DNA of 64,000 bases from Trichodelitschia bisporula (lineage: Eukaryota). The notes beneath the pieces are model-generated. The model saw only the letters and a list, made by a program, of their open reading frames with translations, was not told where the DNA came from and made no database searches. Below are positions 34,248 through 55,704 of the stretch, piece after piece; positions within the stretch are counted from its first letter, which is position 1; every line of letters begins with the position of its first letter. The translations under genes were made by a program, and so were the position numbers. The stretch spans positions 1,184,174-1,248,173 of the forward strand of contig ML996691.1 in NCBI GenBank assembly GCA_010356995.1, read 5' to 3'.

Positions 34248-36222
34248 TCAAGTGATCAGGAAGTCCCAACCCTAAAGCCGTCAGTATGCGCGCTTAGCCA
34301 CAGCATGGATCAAAACTCACCATGTCCTTGATGATCGTCTCCCAATCCCAGGAACTCTCGCTGCCCTCATCCATGAGCTCCCACACCCGCTCCACAATCC
34401 TCTTGGCATACTTGATGTTACCGAGGCTGCTGTAAGCCTCGAGCGAATCAAAGGCCCTTTGAATTTCAGGCCGCTGTTCTTGTTGGAAAGCGGAGCAGCC
34501 GAGGATGAAGAGCGGCATGAGCATGATACTCTGCGTTGACGAGTCCTCAGGCAGTTCCCGTAGGTACTCGAGGCCTTCATCGACGGCCATGTGGAGCTGC
34601 GCATTCGGTGTCGACGGCTGTATCGTGCGGTGCAGATACAGCCAGGTACATTGCCGGTAAAGCATGGCGGCCGTCCAGCGCGGTGTGTCGACGGGCTGAC
34701 CGGAATGCCAGGACCGCAGGTTCGAGTCGATCATCTGCGCATCGGCTAGGATCTGGTAGTCCACCCACGGCTTGAGGTTCTGTTCCCTCCGGGTGCGGAT
34801 CCGATCGCGCAGTTGCCGGATTTTCGAAATGCATCCGAAGAGTCCGTCTACGACACCGAGAAAGACGCCAGCCTCGGGCTGGATCATGAACTGCGGCAGC
34901 TGAAAGTCCTCCATCATCAGCACCGACGGCCGATCGATGGAGGTCACTGAGTTTGACACATTGTGGTAGATGAAGAACTCGATAAGGAACGCTCGGAACT
35001 CTTGGTTGCGGGAGTTCTGTGTGCAGATGAGATGTTTCGCTGCGTCAAGATGAACCCGATATTCGCCTTGGACTTCGCCAGCGCAGATCGACCTCAAGCA
35101 GAGAACGAGCGTCTGGGCTACCGTTGGATCGTCAATGATCGCTGTCTCGTCGCCTTTAGCATTCCTGTCGAGTAGGGCATCTGTCCGGAGATTCTTGACA
35201 GCGCAATCGTAATGGTGAGACTGTCGCTCCTCGAACCGTTTATCCGGATCTCTGCTGCTCAGATGAGCGCCTGAAAGGCAAAGCAGCGAGTGCATGAGGC
35301 CACGGTGGCTAGTGGCCATCGGCAGCAGGATTTCTGGCGAAGTTAGCGGAAATGCGTGCCTCCTAGTGACCAAGATCGTACCCTTGAAAGGATTCTGCTT
35401 GTCAGTAAACAGACTCAAGACTCTGGATAAGTTCAGGTTGAAGTGGTTAAAGAGGAACCAGTCCAGCTCCGTCTCAATGCCTTCAATCAGGAGCGGAAGC
35501 TCGCGTGGGCGATCCACGCTCGCTCCTCGACCTTTCGGATATCAGTGCACAACCTCAAGCGCAGGAAAGAGCTCACTCTTGACCAAGCGCTGCTTCCCAC
35601 CTTGCCAGTAGTCCTTCGGCGGATAGCCCTCGCAATGAACGTTGTTCTTCTGGCAGTGCAAGCACGCCGGCTTCGTCTCGTCGCACTTCTTCTTCCGTCT
35701 CCTGCAAGTGATGCATCCCGTCTTGCTCCTCCCTTTGGCCAGTTTTGCGCTCGCGTCTGGCGGAGACCTTGGGTACTTTCTCGGCCGACCTCTCGGTCTT
35801 CGGACAACCGCAGCCACGTCGCCTTTCCGATCCTCATTCTCCCCGCTGTTATCTGCCGCTCCTGCATCATCAATCTCTTGATCACCGTCTATACCAATGT
35901 CCTCATTCCCACCCCCACTTCCGTCCGCACTCTCAACCTTAGTCGGGCCAGTCATCAGACCTACGTCGTCATCCTCAATTTCCTCAACCTTGGGTACCAC
36001 CTCTTCACCACTGCTGCTGCCAGCGTCAGCCGAGGGTTTCCTCCCGTACTGTCCCAACCCGATAGAGAAGACGAAGGTAGTGCGGGGCGACTCGCTCGAG
36101 GCGGCTGTGGATGTAGACGAAGAGGGAGAGGAGGAGCTGGCACTAGATTGCCGAGCATAAATGGATCGCGGTCGCGGAGGCCCGAAAGCTGGAGTGAGGG
36201 TGGGTGCCATTGTCGCAGCCAT
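34248..36222 (-). CDS. oefC: Zn(II)2Cys6 transcription factor with AT-hook and fungal-specific TF domain (OefC-like)
   Basis: AT-hook RRPRGRPRK and binuclear cluster CITCRRRKKKCDETKPACLHCQKNNVHC, followed by a fungal TF middle domain. Terminal exon GWDFLIT* follows an intron at ~34272-34320. An alternative in-frame ATG lies at 36306. The symbol is recalled similarity and is less certain than the family call. Confidence 0.85.
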
Positions 36223-39199
36223 GCGGGTTCGATGCTTCTTAAAGTTAAGTCGGGTTACAAAGGGTTGCGGAAATGTGGTGTGATGTGCTTGGTATGGGCA
36301 ATGCAATCGGGCATTGCCAGCTGATGGGGATGCAGAGGAGGGTTGAAATCCCGGGGGGTGCGGTGGTGATGGTCGTTCGGAGGTGCCTAACAGCGAGCTC
36401 AGGGGTGAGCCAAAACACGCAGGCTACAAAACCGAGTACGTCGGAATATTCATCCAGAGAGCTCAAGGTAACGAAATACGGGTACGGAATTGAGCAAATG
36501 TGCCGACCAGAAAGAAGATAGAGTAGGGTTGGCGGGTGGTGACGATGAGAGCGGGCTGCGATGATGTCGAGGACAGGTCCAGCGCGGGCAAATGCAGACG
36601 AAACAGTCCAAAGGAGCTGCACGCCGAGGGCAAGTCGCAATGGTTATATAATCCAACGATGGTGGCCTATGAGTAGAAGAACCCAGGGATCGCTACCCCC
36701 GGGGGCGTGGCCTTTTAGTTTCTCGCACTTCAACTCACCTCACTCTGTGTAACGCACAAGCACCGCACGCGAAAGGCAGCCACGGGCACAGGCATAGAGC
36801 GGGGAGGGGGCGCTTTTTCGGTTGGGGTGCTTGGGTAGTGCCGGGGGGGGGGTGTGGGAGACTGAAAGGGACTAGAGAAATGGGGGGAGAAAGAGGCGGA
36901 GGAAGAGAGTGAGCGGGGCAGGGGACGGCGGGGCCAGACATGGTGAATAAAAGTGGAGACTGGGGGGAGTTGGAATAGAGATGAGGGGGGGAGACGATTA
37001 GTTAGTTTGGATAGAACGACAGAAGGGGTGGAGAAAAAGAGGCGTTGTCTTCTGTCGCTTGGCACATCCGGTGGCCGTGGAAAAGAAAGAGGCGACCAGG
37101 GGGCACTAACGACACAGAAAGAGCCTTAGAATGATGGAAGTTGGAAGAGGAACAAGGCCAAAAGCGCGGAGGTTCGAATCGGGCAGTTAGTACCCTTGGT
37201 GGTGAAGAGGGAATGGGGAGAGAAAGGGACGGCCCTTGCTTGTGGGATGCGCGCAAAGAGTGGTGATGCGGGGAGGACCTGGGCCTCTCATGGAACGTTT
37301 AGAGAAGATCCGATGGTAACGAGACATAGAATACGTCCAGACCACCATTCATCTCCCCTACAATAACAGCCATCCTCTAACGACCCCAGCGGGCACACAA
37401 CCGCCAATGAAGATTGAAGTGGACGTTTCCGCAGTGAGGGATCCCCCCCGGATTCCCATGCCTGTCGCCCGTCTGCGGGTTTTCATTCTGCCACAATCTC
37501 ACTGACGTGAGGCGAGGGATACTCCGTTGGCCAAAGCGAGACGGAATTTATACGGTCCGACCTCGTTCCTTGATACAACAGAGGGGATGACGAACTGACG
37601 AGGCTGTATCCATTATCGCTAACATAGCAGCCTAGCGGATTGTCCTCTCCAATCATGCATGAGCCACTTACCCTTCTAGTTCTAGGGAGCAAGCGCTATC
37701 TCCCGCCTGCAAGCTCCATCACCACGGGGACTATGTTAGTTGGCAAGACTGCGTCGTCGCATATAACACAGGTACGGTGGAGATCCTATTTTCGGAGCAA
37801 CTCTGCTCCGTTCATTTGGAGCTGAAGCCAACCGAACACCTCTCAGCAAGGACATGAGGAACGTCGAAGCTCAATCTCCCACCGCTACTTCGAGGTGACG
37901 AGTGATGAGACTGGCCTTCCCCGGAGGTTAAGGGGCCTACGAATTTCACCCGTGGTAGAGTATACCGACGGGGATAGGGAATACACTTCGCGACCCAGTG
38001 CCGGGAGAGTCCATGGGATGAAAAGCCACAGGAGGAGGAGTATGTCCGGCGATCGATATGATGTGGGTCTGGCGACGTCTTTATGGCATGTTTAGCCGCT
38101 GGCTTTGCGCATCAGTCGCAGATCATCGTTCTTAGCACTGTCTTGGGGACCGAGAAATCAAGAGGATGTCCGAGATCGATATCACTTAGGACAGAATATC
38201 GCCGTCGCATGCATCCATATCCCTTCTCCCTCCGCGCAAATCGGCTTGGACTCCTGCTCCGGAAAAGCCGAACCTTAGCGAAACCGATATCGACACCGAG
38301 ACCTCGAATGTAAAAGCTTGATGTAGTGCTAGTTTGATGCGCAATGGTAAGCATTGCACTGTGAACTAGTCCAGGAACGGGAAGGAGGAGTGGGTCAAAA
38401 AGGCGTATCCGCAGACATCCTATTCTAGATGCCGGTCATCCAATTTGATACAATCCCATATTCCCGATCATTCCCGGTGCTTTTCTAAGCAGTCAACGGA
38501 CTACCCCGTACCTCCGTAAAGGACTGAAAATGATAAACGTCCTGCAAGGCTGGTCCAGCCCTCAGCGGCCCCGTTCGGTGCACAATCGGGCTCTGAGCCC
38601 GAAGTTCCGGTGCAAATGTAAGCGAGCACATCCAGCCACACGCCGCCTCGTCATGCACAACGGGGAAAACCAACCTCTCGAGCAAAACGGATCAGCCAAT
38701 GCAGAATGCAGATGCAGACCGGAGCCATTTTCTTTACCCCGCAGCAGCAGCACAGTCAAACATTGGTCGTTGACACCTCGCCGAAAGCAGCATCTCGGGC
38801 ACGATGCGGTTCGGCAAAGTCATGACCTGTGGGACGAAGTCGGTCCCCGCATCTTGGCATTGTAACTTCATGCCTCTCCCCTCTCTGGTGTCCGTGTTAT
38901 TTCAGCCTCGTTACTAAGAGCTCACAGCATCTCGCTCTGTTCGGAATCCGCCATGGATGCTCTACTGCGCCAGCATCAGAGTGGGTTCCAGGACAGTGCC
39001 GCCATGCCTGCTTTCAGCACAGTTCCGCTTGTCGTGGCGTCGTGATAATCCCTGCATTGCTTCGCGGGGCAGCTAGAGCATGCGTGGCGTGTAATACGGA
39101 CGATTAACAGGCAGAGTGGATCTCTGGCAAAGAAAACCCTCCTGGACCGCCAACCTAGACAGCTTCACTCCGTACGGCGGCCGGTGTCCATCATGGCCA

Positions 39200-41600
39200 G
39201 CAACGGTCCGACCTAACCTTATTAAAGGGCCAACCGCATGGTAAGGCGAAAGTGAACGGAGATGTGCTATCCTTTGGGCATCCTCGGACCGAAGTTCATT
39301 CTCGCAACTCGCAAGCCAGGCGTCCGCACGCGATCATCAATATCGGGACTGTTCGTACGACTCTATCGGGAGCCGCAAAAGCAACACTTCCGTTCGTTCG
39401 AGCTGGTCCACTGAAGCTCTGGTTCACCGTTTGCCCATAATCCTCTTTCTCCGCACCAATGAAACAACCAGAATTTCTCAACTGCATTGCGTTGCCGAAG
39501 CGGCTGCAGCTTAGGACTCGTAAGGAGCGCATCGGCGGGTGGGTTCTTTCGCCATCATCGCCGCCTTGCCATCTGTGATTGGCTTCGGGCCAGCCGCTCG
39601 GCAGCTGGCAAGCTGGCGTGGACGGCCATAGACAAACGAATATCTGCATGTAAGTGCATTTGCGGAGAGAGGTGAAGACTCATAGCGACGCCGAGTCCCC
39701 GTCGCAACCCAAGAGCCAGGGGATATCGACTGACAGTCCTTCCGATGCTATCATTGGCATACTCGGAGCGTGGCACATGAGCGCAATTGAATGCGAGGAA
39801 TACTCATTAGACAGGGGGCCGTTGCAGTTGCGTATGGTAAACCGGCGTTGCGAAAACACCCCACAATGGTCGACGGATGGGCGTCACCACTTGGGCTCCG
39901 TGTGTTCTGCTGTCGTCGTAAGATGAGATGTCAGGATACCGTAGTCACGCGGACCTTCTAGGCTACACAAAGGGTCCAACGGTGAGCTTGTCATGTCAGG
40001 ATCCGAAGACATTCTCTGACCGGCTTCGAGAGTGAGCTCCATGAGGATTTTCTCTTACGCGTCAGCATGGCAACGTTATGGTGGAGGGCGAAACGTGTGG
40101 CTGTCAGCCCTTCAGCCACTAGATCGACCCTCAACTCCAGACGCTGCATCCGAGACATTTCGTCCACCTGCGGATAGTATGCCAAAAACAGGAATGAAAA
40201 AGTGTATGTGAGATCAATATTGCGAATGACTGGGTTTTCCGCGACTGTGATACGTCCAACGCGGACAAAATACGAAGTGAATGCGATCAGTCACAAATGG
40301 GCTTCTGTTTTGACTTTGGCAGGATTCTCGGGTGCGGTAAGCCCCGAAGCCATGAGGAGGATGGACCGTGTGTTTCAACACAAGGCCTGGGGAAAATGCC
40401 ACAGACATCCAAAACGTGGCCCCCACTGAGCTCTGGTATTCGAAGAGTCTCCAGCCTTGTGCAATGTGGTTAACCGGGCGTAGAGTAATCTGAGCGCGGA
40501 TCCATATTGGTGGACGCCATGCACAAAGATATGACCTTGCGGAGGAACCGAGCTCTGGCCTTGCAAATCAGCTTAAGGCGGATTTCCATGTGAGAAATGA
40601 ACGCGATCCGCTGCTGCGCTACAGTTCGACCCAGCTCGCAAGGGTGTTCGCGAATCAGATGCGCGGTACAAGGGCCGGCATATCGTGCAGCATCCGAGCC
40701 CTGTAAATCGGCCTGTTGTGCAGGGAAAGGCGGGGTATCATGCATGCGGGGTGCTAGAACAAGGGGGAGCAGCAGACTGGACTTGGCCGAAAACTTGCAC
40801 CTCTCATCCATCCGAGGTTCTGGCTAGCCAGCACTCGCTGCGCGCGGATTTCTTGCGGGATATTTCGAGAGAAAAGACGGATTCTCCAGGGATGAACGAT
40901 CAATCGGCAAGGTCGTGCGGGTGAGATTTGCATCTTACTGCAGGCGGGGGGCGGTTAAAAGCGGGTTACCCGGCTGCCAGTTCGACAGATGCATCAGATT
41001 TCATCATCAGCACTTGCCTTTGGAGTTTGTGCCGTAGATTGTACTGTGGTATGTTCACCGCAGCCGAGCGCAGGTTGGTTGGTTGGCTCTTGGTTTTAGT
41101 CCGCTGTCGTCATTTCGCGTAGACCTGCCTGATGTCGCATCTAGAGCTGGTCCGTAACCCATCAACAGCTAGCTCCCGGACGTTGGTCATCAGAATGACT
41201 TAGGGTTATCAGCCACGCTGACTTCATTTGGCGAATACCAACTTTAAAAAAGAGCTCTAATGCAGCTGGAACGGCCGACCGCTTCAACGGCGAAGGACGG
41301 GTCGACAAAACGCGGGAACGATGAAGAGAAACTGCAGGTACGCTTTGCCGCTTCGTAGGATCATCAAGCATCCCAATGATAAGCGTGCCACAGAGCTGCC
41401 GTGAAACATACGGTAACCGGAAAGGCAACTGCCCCGGAAGTTGATATCCGCATCAGCCATGCGCATCGGATTTTGGCAAGGGGATGCCCGACGGCAGTTG
41501 CGTCAACATCTGATGTAAGACCTGATGGGTTGCTGTAGAATTTCCGTTCGGAGCCGGCAAGCCGTACTTCGGTCCCGTGTGTTGCACTCTGTAAGCGTGA
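39200..41600 (-). ncRNA. Candidate telomerase RNA (boundaries approximate)
   Basis: Template TAACCCTAA (41208-41200) is directly preceded by hairpin TCAGC-GTG-GCTGA (41221-41209). 41257-41232 pairs at long range with 40442-40428. The region has no credible ORF. Pseudoknot and CR4/5 were not identified. Confidence 0.4.
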
Positions 41601-42319
41601 GTTCGTATTTCGTGCGCTGTGCGCCGTGGGGAACAGCAGCTGCCACGAGAGTTCAGACTCCAGCCTTACGAACCACTGCCATTGGTGATCCCGCACTACG
41701 AACTGTTTGTTTGAAATTGGAAGGCGCCTCAATCACTGATATGAAGCTAGCCATGCTTCTGGAGCAGGGGAACGAAAGACCGGGGCGTCTGTTCTTGAAG
41801 CTCCTTGAGGGGTAGGGTGGTTGTTGCCGTGGGCGCTTTAGCTTGAATTTCACGAGATCCACGCAATATCGACGGCGAATGCTGAATGGCTTGATAATGG
41901 AACCAGAAACGTTAATGAATCCATGAACGCCCGCAATATCATGATGGCACGGTAATTGGGTATGGCTGGCGCGCAGTTTGACCTGAAGAAAACGAGGAGG
42001 TGATGTTCAGACTTGAAATCTTTCAGAGTGGAGTGACATCATGGCGATGCCTGGGAGATATTTTTGAGGCAGCAAGGCCAAAAACGGCCACACTATCGGG
42101 CCGCGCTGTCTTCCGGAGTCGCAGACTTGGCGCTCGGACGCGTCTTCCAATGTCGCCCCAACAGGAATGTCGTCGACTGACAACAACGATCCTTCAATAC
42201 CATCAAGTTACTCCTCGATCTTTAGTAATCTCGACGAGTGCGTGGAGCTCTGGCGCTGGTGATAGAAGATACCCCTGGATTCTGGAGTCGTTGGGTTCAC
42301 TTTACACTGCACAGGACAG

Positions 42320-45300
42320 ATGTTCACCTTCACCTCCCTGCTGGGAGCCCAATCCAGCTCGCCGGCATCGCAGTCACTTCTTGAGCTGGATGGTGGTATC
42401 AAGATACTAATCGACGTGGGCTGGCATGAGAGCTTTGACGTAGAACTGCTGCAGAACCTTGAGAAGTAAGTTGGTTGTCGTGTGATCAAGCTCGTAATGG
42501 GATCGTTGGATACGCTTTGCCTCTTTGTTATCTAAATGCGTGATGGCATGTACATAGAGTAGCTGACCGGATTGCTATAGACATATTCCAACTCTCTCCT
42601 TCATCCTCCTCACGCATGCCACTACGTCTCACCTCGGTGCATTTGCCCACTGCTGCAAACACTTCCCGCTGTTTTCGAAAATCCCTATTTACGCAACAAC
42701 GCCGGTGATATCGCTTGGAAGGTCACTTCTCCAGGATCTCTACACCTCAACCCCGTTGGCCGCGTCCTCGATCCCTCAGGCGGCCTTTACAGACTACGCC
42801 TACGCGCTTGCCGGATCCAAGAACGCCACGACTCCGAACATCCTTCTACAGCCTCCTACGCCCGAGGAGATTGCCAGCTACTTCTCCCTCATCACACCTC
42901 TCAAATACTCCCAGGCGCACGAGCCGGCCGCTTCGCCCTTCTCACCCCCTCTCAATGGCCTCCAGATTACGGCGTACAGCGCTGGTCACACACTCGGAGG
43001 AACGATATGGCATATTCAGCATGGGTTGGAGTCTGTAGTCTACGCTGTAGATTGGAACCAAGCTCGAGAGCATGTTCTGTCGGGTGCAGCATGGCTCAGT
43101 ACTGGAGGTGCGGAAGTTATCGAGGCCTTGCGCCGGCCAACAGCTCTCATCTGCAGCAGCCGGGCATCGCAACGCGTGGCTCTTCCTGGCGGGCGGAAAA
43201 AGAGAGACGAACTCCTGGTCGAGTTAATCAAAGGGACCATCGCTAAGGGTGGCACCGTCTTAATTCCTTCGGACTCCAGCGCTCGGATCCTTGAGCTTGC
43301 CTACATGCTCGAAGACGCTTGGGCGAAAGATAAGGATGACGAGAATGCAGATATGCTACGTCGCGCGCGCCTTTTCCTTGCCAGCTCGACGGCCAATGCT
43401 ACTATGCGCCACACGCGGAGTATGCTCGAATGGATGGCCGAAGAAATTGTGCGGGAGTTTGAGTCCGCTGGTGGTACTGGCCCTCAAGGCCAAAACATGA
43501 ATGAGGGGAAGCTGGGACAAAAGACGGGGAAAGCGCCTTTCGATTTCACCTATCTGAAGCTGCTGGAGCGGAAGAAGCAATTACAGCGTGCTCTAGCCCA
43601 AGACGGTCCCAAGGTCTTCATAGCCAGCGACACCTCTATGGAGTGGGGCTTTTCGCGGACACTGATCCAGAACATTGCACACGATCCGCGGAACTTGGTC
43701 ATCCTCACAGAGCGCATCTCACCACTCTCGAAGACGGAAAACGGAATCGGTAGGTTGCTGTGGAATTTGTGGGCGGACCGATCCGGTGCGAACTCCTCAC
43801 TGGCAGTCGAGGACGCCTCTTCCAAAGTGATCGACGTCGACGATGACGACTTTACGTACCGCGAAGTCCGGATGGAAAAGCTTGCCGGAAATGAGCTGGC
43901 CGTGTATCAACAGTACCTCGCACGCCAACGCCAGATCCTGAACACCGTCAACGCCGAAAAGACCACAGCCCTTGAAACCTCCGCCGATATCGCCAACGAT
44001 GCCTCCTCGAGCTCTTCAGAGTCCTCAGAAGAAGACGAAGAAGGTCAACAAGGCAAAGCCCTCAATGTGACCACAGCAATGACGCACTCGAAGCACAAGC
44101 TCGGCCTCACCGACGCCGAACTCGGCATCGACATCCTGATCCGCCGCAAAGGACACTACGACTACGACGTGCGTGCCAAGAAAGGCCGCGAGCGCATGTT
44201 CCCCTTCGTCACGGCCCGGCGCAACCAGCGCAGCGATGCATTCGGTGACGTCATCCGGCCAGAGGAGTACCTGCGTGCGGAGGAGCGTGACGAGATCGAA
44301 AACGAGGAGACGCGCCCTGGCCTGCGGAAGGAATCTACCCTCGGTCAGAAACGCAAGTGGGGCGATGTGGCGAAGCAAATGGGACCCGGAGGTCGTCGTG
44401 CGCCAAATGGGCTTGCGAAGCGACCTAAGCTTGACGGCCCGGCTGGTGAGGCTATGCGTGGGGCGTCCGTCGAGCAGCAAGAGGAGGTGGAATCGGAATC
44501 CGAAGATGAGTCGGGATTGAAGGATGGTCCTGTGCGCGCGGTGTTTGAGGAGAGGACGCTGAGATTGCATATTCGGCTTGCATATGCGGATTTCTGCGGC
44601 TTACACGATAAACGCAGTCTGCAGATGTTGATCCCGCTTATTCGACCTCGGAAGCTTATCCTTGTGGGAGGCGAGACACAGGAAACTCTTGCGCTGGCAG
44701 CGGATTGCAAACAGCTTCTCAGTACCTCCGATGACACGGCTGAGCGGACGGCGGATATATTCACGCCTGTGATTGGGGAGACGGTGGATGCAAGCGTGGA
44801 CACTAATGCGTGGGTGGTCAAGCTCAGCAAGAGTATGGTCAAGAAATTGCAGTGGCAGAATGTGCGTGGGCTTGGTGTGGTTGCGATCATGGGTCAACTG
44901 GCTATGGACGAGGGCGGGGGACATGAGAGCACAACAAAGAAGATGCGGGTCACGAATGGGGAAGAGAATGGCGAGGAGGGAATGGAGGAGGAGGATGAGG
45001 AGAAAGAGGAGAACAAGGCCGATGTCAACGGCCCCGGATTCCCGGTTCTGGACGTCGTTTCGGCTGCAATGGCGGCTCGGACTCGAGCCGTGGCCCAGCC
45101 GGTTCACGTCGGTGATCTTCGGCTTGCCGATCTTCGGAAACTCATGCAGCAGGTCGGATATTCGGCCGAGTTCCGAGGCGAGGGCACATTGGTCATCAAC
45201 GGCTTGGTCACAGTGCGTAAGAGCGGGACTGGCCGCATTGAGATTGATGGCATAGTGGGCATGTTCAGTGGCATGCGGCCGGATGAAACTTTCTACGAAG

Positions 45301-45347
45301 TCAAGAAGAGAATTTACGAGGGACTGGCTGTGGTGGCAGGAGTGTAA
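42320..45347 (+). CDS. CFT2: Cleavage and polyadenylation specificity factor subunit 2 (CPSF100/Cft2)
   Basis: N-terminus MFTFTSLLGAQS...KILIDVGW. Intron 42466-42580. Inactive MBL/beta-CASP motifs (LTHATTSHLGA, AGHTLGGTIW, DFCGLHDKRS). CPSF100 C-terminal HVGDLRLADL...AEFRGEGTL. Confidence 0.95.
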
Positions 45348-45713
45348 GGGAGAGGAACTAATTGTATTACTAGGCAAGAATGCAGAAATCATAACGGACT
45401 GGCACCGTTGTCTCTACTAACCATACCCTTTCCCAGTTACTTACTGCGGTGCGGTCGTTTGCCTGGCGGAACTTTCACGTCCTCCACCGTGCCTTCCCCG
45501 CACGGCTGCCGGCGGCCGGCAATTTTTCGGCATGCCGACCACTCGGACTGGCTTACCGGTGACTCGGCCCGGTGACATGGCATGCCGGGCCGGTGACTGA
45601 TTTTCTCCTCAAGTATTGTCCTCAGCCTCCGCAAACCAACTCCTTTCCTTCGCCCATCGTCTCCTTGTTTCCACGCTCCTCATCTTCTTCACGTTTCCAC
45701 TCGTCTTGTGACA

Positions 45714-55596: not shown

Positions 55597-55704
55597 TGCC
55601 CCTAGTGGGGATCGAACCCACGACATTCGCATTGCCAGGATGACCTGTCATATTGGTGCAAAGACCCATATAAGAACGACGCGCTACCTCTGCGCTATAG
55701 GGGC
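55597..55704 (-). tRNA. trnI-TAT: tRNA-Ile (anticodon TAT) with 36-nt intron (55633-55668)
   Basis: Acceptor stem GCCCCTA/TAGGGGC+A, D-arm GCGC-AGAGGTA-GCGC, anticodon loop CTTATA with intron after position 37, T-arm GTGGG-TTCGATC-CCCAC. T5 Pol III terminator at 55586-55590. Confidence 0.95.

Follow-up and report, generated by a model that had tools for sequence, protein, structure and literature searches.

In our study, a stretch of 64,000 nucleotides from Trichodelitschia bisporula (contig ML996691.1, positions 1,184,174 to 1,248,173, forward strand; hereafter the window) was found to contain a long non-coding RNA (lncRNA) beside the CFT2 gene, and this RNA spans a word that could serve as the template of a telomerase RNA (TER). 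A first-pass annotation, made from the letters of the window, had proposed a TER gene at 39200-41600, in a gene-free gap between a Zn2Cys6 factor gene and CFT2. The principal features of the locus are the following.

38047..42000, minus strand: region covered by unspliced RNA contigs of the runs X3 and X4 and without coding signal, a candidate for a TER precursor or an lncRNA
38674-38593, minus strand: intron GUUGGU...CAG, 82 nt (joint 38592/38675, CT..AC on the plus strand, one X4 contig)
41257-41252 and 41240-41232, minus strand: GAGCUC and UGGUAUUCG (DNA TGGTATTCG), 5' strands of a candidate enclosing helix, with a U-rich 11-nt bulge between them
41221-41217 / 41213-41209, minus strand: hairpin UCAGC-GUG-GCUGA with a 3-nt loop, candidate template boundary element, abutting the 9-mer directly
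41208-41200, minus strand: putative template 5'-UAACCCUAA-3' (DNA TAACCCTAA), 1.5 telomere repeats, string checked by script
40442-40428, minus strand: contiguous CGAAUACCA-GAGCUC (DNA CGAATACCAGAGCTC), 3' strands of the candidate enclosing helix, complementary to both 5' strands

The gap and its transcript

The gap was flanked by an open reading frame (ORF) with a Zn2Cys6 motif (35542-36423, minus strand) and by the ORF of CFT2/CPSF2 (42567-45347, plus strand), which was 100% identical to a Dothideomycete protein, the next relatives being ~57-60% identical. No stretch of the window free of ORFs of 150 or more amino acids was longer than 36424-42566, which measured 6,143 nt against 2,217 nt in the runner-up. 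The annotated gene-free gap was thus confirmed as free of ORFs of this size, but it was not silent, since it was found to be transcribed.

Contigs from four public runs were placed over 35000-45500. Two of the runs (X1 and X2) were DNA runs and gave continuous contigs with no joints. The other two (X3 and X4, one sample of one study) are not recorded as RNA in the run listing and were taken as RNA because their contigs splice the neighbouring genes. The Zn2Cys6 gene contained introns at 35334-35381 (48 nt) and 35530-35574 (45 nt) on the minus strand, reading CT..AC on the plus strand, and CFT2 contained an intron after its first exon at 42466-42580 (plus strand, 115 nt, GT..AG). The start codon of CFT2 was placed by tblastx near 42317-42320. 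Contigs cannot give the ends, the strand or the level of an RNA, and uncovered stretches (e.g., 37216-38046 in X3) were not counted as evidence.

Between the two genes, X3 gave an unspliced contig of 3,937 nt (38047-41983, depth 18.5) and X4 gave an unspliced contig of 3,326 nt (38675-42000, depth 48.3), which ended exactly at an exon boundary. The joint 38675/38592 was found in X4 with a depth of 13.9 and a shorter side of 28 letters, and GUUUUG was present 9 nt upstream of the intron; the X3 contig read through the 82 nt. The lncRNA was provisionally assigned to the minus strand because this joint, the sole evidence of strand, is GT..AG on the minus strand. The next X4 contig (37399-38594, depth 12) continued toward the contig of the Zn2Cys6 mRNA, which begins at 37340. 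The fall in depth from 48.3 to 12 across 38675 is a hint only, as contig depth cannot rank the parts of a gene.

The CFT2 contigs began at 42159 and 42300 and faced the lncRNA contig ends at 41983 and 42000, so the two RNAs look divergent from one promoter region. If the RNA is on the minus strand, its 5' end would lie at ~41983-42000. A transcript over the template was one of the checks proposed with the annotation: contigs of both X3 and X4 covered 41208-41200, and the single downstream joint points to the template sense. The best explanation of these contigs is a Pol II-type, unspliced, non-coding RNA, which started divergently from the CFT2 promoter at ~42000 and ran along the minus strand.

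An ACGCGT palindrome, within GACGCGTCCGAGCGCC, was found at 42138-42143, in the 160 nt that separate the end of the lncRNA contig (42000) from the start of the CFT2 contig (42159). It resembles the MluI cell-cycle box and the box ACGCGTCGCG, which is conserved upstream of the Aspergillus TERs and labelled 'Promoter?' in the S1 alignment of Kuprys et al.; the expectation for a 6-mer palindrome is ~15 occurrences per window.

An RNA of this position could be a functionless by-product of a bidirectional CFT2 promoter, that is, a cryptic divergent transcript through a long spacer in which the template word is a chance motif. The right ends of the contigs (41983 and 42000) lay 160-300 nt from the CFT2 contig starts, and the word depth was low (18.5 and 48.3, against 205-892 in the neighbours), contig depth being a poor measure. 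However, transcripts of this cryptic divergent kind tend to be short and unstable, whereas this RNA assembled contiguously over 3.3-3.9 kb in two runs and was spliced once downstream. A repeat-free spacer of 6 kb in an otherwise compact window also suggests that something is maintained there, and we regard the by-product explanation as rather improbable.

A regulatory lncRNA was the second alternative, one that would leave the divergent promoter of CFT2 and run in tandem into the promoter of the Zn2Cys6 gene, acting by interference or as an alternative long leader, with the 9-mer and the helices due to chance. The RNA contigs tiled the minus-strand direction from 42000 to 37399, close to the start of the Zn2Cys6 mRNA contig at 37340 in X4, and the sole splice joint had the same direction as the Zn2Cys6 gene. 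Upstream lncRNAs control several fungal regulator genes (SRG1-SER3, IRT1-IME1, and ICR1-FLO11). No contig, however, joined the lncRNA to the Zn2Cys6 mRNA. This explanation is possible, if somewhat unlikely.

The gap could also hold an unannotated protein-coding gene, a pseudogene or a decayed mobile element. The longest ORFs in 38047-42000 had at most 136 amino acids, several of 80-136 amino acids being present on both strands. There was no splice in 38675-42000 that would join them, and none of 10 gap ORFs (80-136 amino acids) reached the Pfam cutoff. With the help of 25 aligned CFT2 proteins, 69 fungal loci that surround CFT2 relatives were collected from metagenomes, and in tblastx against them 111 of 118 high-scoring segment pairs fell in CFT2 exon 1, five in the low-complexity stretch 36400-37000 and two, both weak, in the gap. 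The GC content of the gap was ordinary (0.51-0.57), and the gap was free of repeats and of terminal inverted or direct repeats, save for one 14-nt pair. A coding or decayed element is therefore very improbable.

The 14-nt direct repeat (CAAGGCCAAAAGCG / CAAGGCCAAAAACG) was found at 37153-37166 and 42073-42086, one copy just upstream of each minus-strand transcript start (Zn2Cys6 mRNA and lncRNA), and it could be either a promoter element common to both or a chance repeat. The 5' leader of the Zn2Cys6 gene contained a GA/GGA-rich low-complexity stretch at 36800-36920, which attracted weak tblastx matches from unrelated loci and in which both DNA and RNA contigs broke or branched (loose ends at 36824, 36882, and 36918).

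The template-like word and the candidate helices around it

The word TAACCCTAA was the sole 9-mer of all six (CCCTAA)n registers on both strands of the window, and its place at 41208-41200 agreed with the first-pass annotation in the string check; the window contained no telomere. The number of copies expected per window was 0.11, and at least one copy was present in 11 of 100 shuffles. Taken alone, the word is near chance level, a caveat which had accompanied it from the beginning and which these figures bear out. It contained the 1.5 repeats that are the minimum for a Pezizomycotina TER template. In the ensemble fold prediction, 8 of its 9 bases were unpaired with a probability of 0.74-0.99, and the word was also unpaired in the minimum free energy (MFE) fold.

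The fungal boundary element is described in PMC4993307 as a helix immediately upstream of the template. The annotated hairpin TCAGC/GCTGA was found in this position, directly 5' of the 9-mer (41221-41209, minus strand). It has 5 bp and is short and without covariation support; it was present in the MFE fold and had an ensemble pair probability of 0.32. The candidate enclosing helix consisted of a 9+6-bp two-part complementarity, which encloses ~800 nt including the template. In fungal TERs the core-enclosing helices have their 5' strand upstream of the boundary element, and the candidate elements here follow one another in this order.

For a chance test, this geometry was written as a descriptor and applied to 24,840 random anchors on both strands of the window. 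The hairpin had to be perfect, with at least 5 bp and a loop of 3-8 nt, and to end 0-2 nt before the anchor. The helix had to contain 9+6 bp, its 5' arm no farther than 60 nt upstream and its 3' arm between 300 and 1,500 nt downstream. A comparable hairpin was found at 1.6% of the anchors and a comparable 9+6-bp helix at 1.15%, with a relaxed 8+5 helix at 11%; hairpin and 9+6 helix occurred jointly at 2 of the 24,840 anchors. These figures overstate the rarity because the descriptor was written after the data had been seen. Even after this post-hoc discount, the combination of hairpin and helix at the one template-like word is unusual and is not what a random place yields. It would have to be a coincidence if the RNA were a regulatory lncRNA, and it is left unexplained if the RNA is a by-product of the CFT2 promoter.

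Folding, further hallmarks and homology

Several results weigh against a TER. The predicted stability was no better than that of shuffled sequences (z = +1.41 for 40400-41290 and z = -0.49 for 39215-39700). The pair probability of the enclosing helix was ~0.001, and forcing the helix cost +6.8 kcal/mol over the MFE; this low probability neither proves nor kills the helix because long-range pairs are poorly predicted in an RNA of 900 nt. The helix therefore fared unevenly, its strands being at the annotated places and rare (1.15%) but not thermodynamically favoured. Extrapolated from the rate in the window (0.11 copies per 64 kb), the chance copies of the 9-mer would number tens in a genome of some tens of Mb, beside one TER. 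Three further stems had been annotated, all on the minus strand.

41501-41493 / 41433-41425, minus strand: stem GCAACTGCC/GGCAGTTGC, confirmed by string check
40528-40520 / 40463-40455, minus strand: local hairpin CUUUGUGCA...UGCACAAGG (DNA CTTTGTGCA/TGCACAAGG) with one G.U pair
40320-40305 / 40191-40181, minus strand: stem GCCAAA..AAACAG / CTGTTTTTGGC, confirmed by string check

By script, every string quoted in the annotation, including ATAAGG near 39222, was found on the minus strand at its place. The three stems were likewise present, but they carried no significance, being at or below chance: in 39200-41600, perfect 9-bp inverted-repeat pairs numbered 7, where the average over the window was 15.9 per 2,401 nt. 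The sequence CUUUUUCAUUCCUGUUUUUGGC at 40203-40181 (minus strand) contained two U-tracts 6 nt apart, of which the second resembles a near-consensus Sm site (GUUUUUGG) and pairs with the A-rich stretch 40320-40305, 115 nt upstream.

The core of a Pezizomycotina TER is expected to hold a pseudoknot with a U-A.U triple helix, U-rich CS3 preceding A-rich CS4. The helix scan of this single sequence gave, in the enclosed core, no pseudoknot in which a U-run precedes an A-run, though a divergent pseudoknot could escape such a scan. There were 52 helices with a 5' U-run and a 3' A-run in 4.1 kb, none of which combined a U-rich loop with a crossing stem in the core. Neither a U-rich loop nor a crossing stem 1 was found for the CUUUGUGCA...UGCACAAGG hairpin (40455-40528), which was therefore not taken as a pseudoknot. 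The cluster 40320-40150, which held the best U/A-rich pairings, was rejected, as its A-rich strand comes first, which is the wrong order, and as it lies outside the enclosing helix.

Hairpins resembling P6.1 (4-bp stem with the loop NUNGN) numbered 7 in 4.8 kb, about the chance level. One fold resembled a three-way junction (TWJ).

38998-38938, minus strand: TWJ-like fold with P5 UGGA/UCCG, an 8-bp P6 closed by the loop UGGC (38981-38960), and P6.1 AUCC-AUGGC-GGAU (38958-38946)

It was one of 6 matches of the junction descriptor in 128 kb, and 272 nt separated it from the observed 5' splice site downstream, close to the ~270 nt estimated from the Aspergillus alignment. In sequence it bore no resemblance to the Aspergillus junction. 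The junction base between its P6 and P6.1 was C and not the invariant A. Directed searches of the region found no P6/P6.1 junction that keeps this A; a descriptor requiring it had 30 matches in 128 kb, and the sole match in the region overlapped the splice site itself. The P6.1 hairpin is followed by GUC in the Aspergillus alignment and also in vertebrates. Requiring P6.1 together with this GUC left four places, none of them with a P6. The invariance of the A between P6 and P6.1 is described in PMC4993307.

Six single P6.1 candidates were rejected. The one at 39858 had a 9-nt junction and was too far from any 3' signal, and the one at 40417 was better explained as another hairpin. At 39225 (UUAA-UAAGG-UUAG-GUC) there was no P6 and A replaced the loop U, and at 39124 (AGAG-AUCCA-CUCU) C replaced the loop G. 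The candidate at 38276 (AAGG-UUCGG-CUUU) capped a long simple hairpin with no junction, and that at 38678 (AGAG-GUUGG-UUUU) overlapped the observed 5' splice site.

The 3'-end signal expected of a TER comprises a pyrimidine-rich Sm-like site, the 5' splice site AUA(A/C)GU and a branch point, and all 13 Aspergilli share this AUA(A/C)GU (PMC3603654; PMC4299874). No ATA[ACGT]GT was present on the minus strand of 42100-37300. The only alternatives to this signal were the GU intron 38674-38593 and the following 6-mer, after which no CURAY branch point was found.

39222-39217, minus strand: AUAAGG preceded by GGCCCUUUA, the nearest match to the Aspergillus signal CGGC3-5U7-12 + AUAAGU; as a 6-mer, expected by chance

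The RNA contig started ~790 nt upstream of the template and ran ~3.2 kb past it, which exceeds the TER sizes in the cited literature. The caveat of the first-pass annotation, that pseudoknot, CR4/5 and AUAAGU could not be identified, stands after the directed searches.

Rfam 15 may contain a Pezizomycotina TER model. The Infernal check suggested with the annotation gave no telomerase-family match, either at the gathering score in the window or at E up to 10 in pieces of 6 kb, 1.4 kb, and 2.4 kb, where one spurious lncRNA match and nothing else was returned. According to PMC6115765 and PMC3592445, the pseudoknot and TWJ sequences are conserved enough across Pezizomycotina for homology searches. 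The Aspergillus TWJ sequence GGAUCAAAGCUYAGGCUUGUC had no match with up to 5 errors in the region, looser matches occurring at the background rate, and CS3, CS4 and three further conserved Aspergillus blocks matched no better than chance. No homology to known TERs was thus detected, by sequence or by profile. A 10-11-nt identity with a conserved Aspergillus block (CGGTTTACCA at 39862) was dropped, ~0.6 such matches being expected by our estimate.

Among the 69 CFT2-relative loci, the 9-mer was found in 4, never at the matching place, and Rfam gave nothing in these four. Of these loci, 36 reached 2 kb or more upstream of CFT2, and none of the 36 carried a 1.5-repeat template there; ACCCTAA on the matching strand within 4 kb was present in 8 of the 36, in no case in a 1.5-repeat context. 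In blastn of 37300-42300 against all loci, 3 matches were returned at E = 4.2, which amounts to no DNA similarity. The conservation expected of a TER was therefore not seen among relatives that are ~60% identical, and neither synteny nor covariation supports a TER. The lack of synteny support says little because the protein identity is ~60% and TER loci are known to move (A. nidulans). The absence of conservation and of excess structure is what the by-product explanation would predict.

In one of the loci with the 9-mer (L022, 1800-4200), some 10 kb upstream of the CFT2 relative were AT-rich, laden with TAA/TAG and without an ORF of at least 120 amino acids. Its TAACCCTAA was attributed to chance because the sequence looks like repeat DNA mutated by repeat-induced point mutation. 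The only match at the Rfam gathering score in the window was a tRNA at 55597-55704 (minus strand, 108 nt, 53.8 bits), which probably has an intron because 108 nt exceeds the 71-position model.

Interpretation and comparison with known telomerase RNAs

The most likely single function of the 38047-42000 transcript is that of a TER, a reading which is credible and unproven and to which we give a probability of roughly 0.4. Its odds were raised strongly by the position in the one large ORF-free gap, by the cover of a long RNA that was unspliced and of the right strand, and by the adjacent hairpin and two-part helix in their proper order. They were lowered by a similar factor because AUA(A/C)GU, homology and a convincing pseudoknot or junction were missing and the length was excessive. 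The reading of the first-pass annotation was thus strengthened by the RNA and by the chance test and weakened by the missing hallmarks, none having been found beyond the surroundings of the template, a distribution which also suits a regulatory lncRNA.

The features of the sequence, its transcription, the missing coding capacity and one minus-strand splice joint are shown, whereas we infer the strand and ends of the main RNA, its folds, any link to TERT and its function. The mechanism would be as follows. TERT would copy the template UAACCCUAA (41208-41200), aligned with the TTAGGG 3' overhang, the hairpin 41221-41209 would halt reverse transcription as it reaches the template's 5' end, and closure of the template core would fall to the two-part helix 41257-41232 / 40442-40428. 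The 3' end could lie near AUAAGG at 39222, giving an RNA of ~2.3-2.8 kb, or it could be formed by first-step spliceosomal cleavage at the 5' splice site 38674, giving ~2.9-3.3 kb. The downstream intron 38674-38593 was counted as pointing to possible spliceosomal 3' processing. Fungal TER 3' ends are formed through spliceosomal cleavage by several different devices, and with A as the first base of the intron the second step of splicing is blocked (PMC4299874).

An outlier form of the TER was also considered. It would be the longest yet (~2.9-3.3 kb, from ~41600-42000 to 38675), would contain the CR4/5-like junction 38998-38938 without the invariant A, and would obtain its 3' end by first-step cleavage at the ordinary-looking GU intron instead of at AUAAGU, as in other filamentous fungi. 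This intron contained GUUGGU and a weak CUUAC branch site, with the branch point ~26 nt before the 3' splice site. We consider this form highly doubtful; if true, it would be a fourth way of using splicing for 3'-end formation.

TERs evolve fast and are unannotated in nearly all fungal genomes, and each confirmed one refines the conserved core. A new TER from an isolated lineage, whose nearest CFT2 relatives are ~60% identical, would be especially useful for comparison. It would widen the known size range and would test the universality of the AUAAGU signal and of the P6.1 junction adenosine. If the RNA is not a TER, a 9-nt template with plausible local helices in a transcribed gap would be insufficient for a TER call.

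The yeast SRG1, IRT1, and ICR1 lncRNAs resemble the present RNA as tandem non-coding transcripts toward the promoter of a transcription-factor gene, but they are without a telomere template and a boundary hairpin.

The Aspergillus and Penicillium TERs (Kuprys et al., 2013, PMC3603654; for the 3' processing, Kannan et al., 2015, PMC4299874) differ from the present locus in several respects. Here, no conserved block was found above chance, and neither AUA(A/C)GU nor GCUAACU was present. The Aspergillus 5' end lies ~300 nt from the template, against ~790 nt here, and the flanking genes are Zpr1 and a TATA-box-interacting protein gene there, whereas CFT2 and the Zn2Cys6 gene are found here. The likenesses are an intergenic ORF-free locus, as the Aspergillus TERs lie in ORF-free intergenic regions (PMC3603654), and the order of core-enclosing strand, boundary helix and template, these being candidates here. 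The hairpin 40528-40455 ends 12 nt before the enclosing 3' strand, and CS4 of the Aspergilli ends 13 nt before "core-enclosing I" (Kuprys S1). The GGCCCUUUA-AUAAGG sequence faintly recalls CGGC3-5U7-12-AUAAGU, and an ACGCGTC motif is present upstream of the transcript start.

A further comparison, by published description, is with the TER of Neurospora crassa (NcrTER; Qi et al., 2013, PMC3592445). NcrTER has 2,049 nt, the template UAACCCUAA, a boundary element and two core-enclosing helices, as well as a PK1/PK2/PK2.1 pseudoknot supported by covariation and a P5/P6/P6.1 junction, whose P6.1 has 4 bp and the loop NUNGN, near nt 1850, ~190 nt from the 3' end. No convincing counterpart of its pseudoknot or junction was found in our RNA, and its 2,049 nt stand against contigs of 3.3-3.9 kb. 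The identical 9-nt template, the template-adjacent helix and the long ORF-less transcript are common to both, and the two core-enclosing helices around the template domain have a candidate counterpart here. Among Dothideomycete TERs, the literature yielded only a length figure, 2,425 nt for Mycosphaerella graminicola (Qi et al., 2013, PMC3592445), a very long TER of the same class which we compared by length alone. A long RNA is within the TER range because this 2,425-nt Dothideomycete TER is on record. The TERs of Pezizomycotina, including those of Dothideomycetes, are a described family, and the present locus, if confirmed, would add one member to it, possibly an unusually long one.

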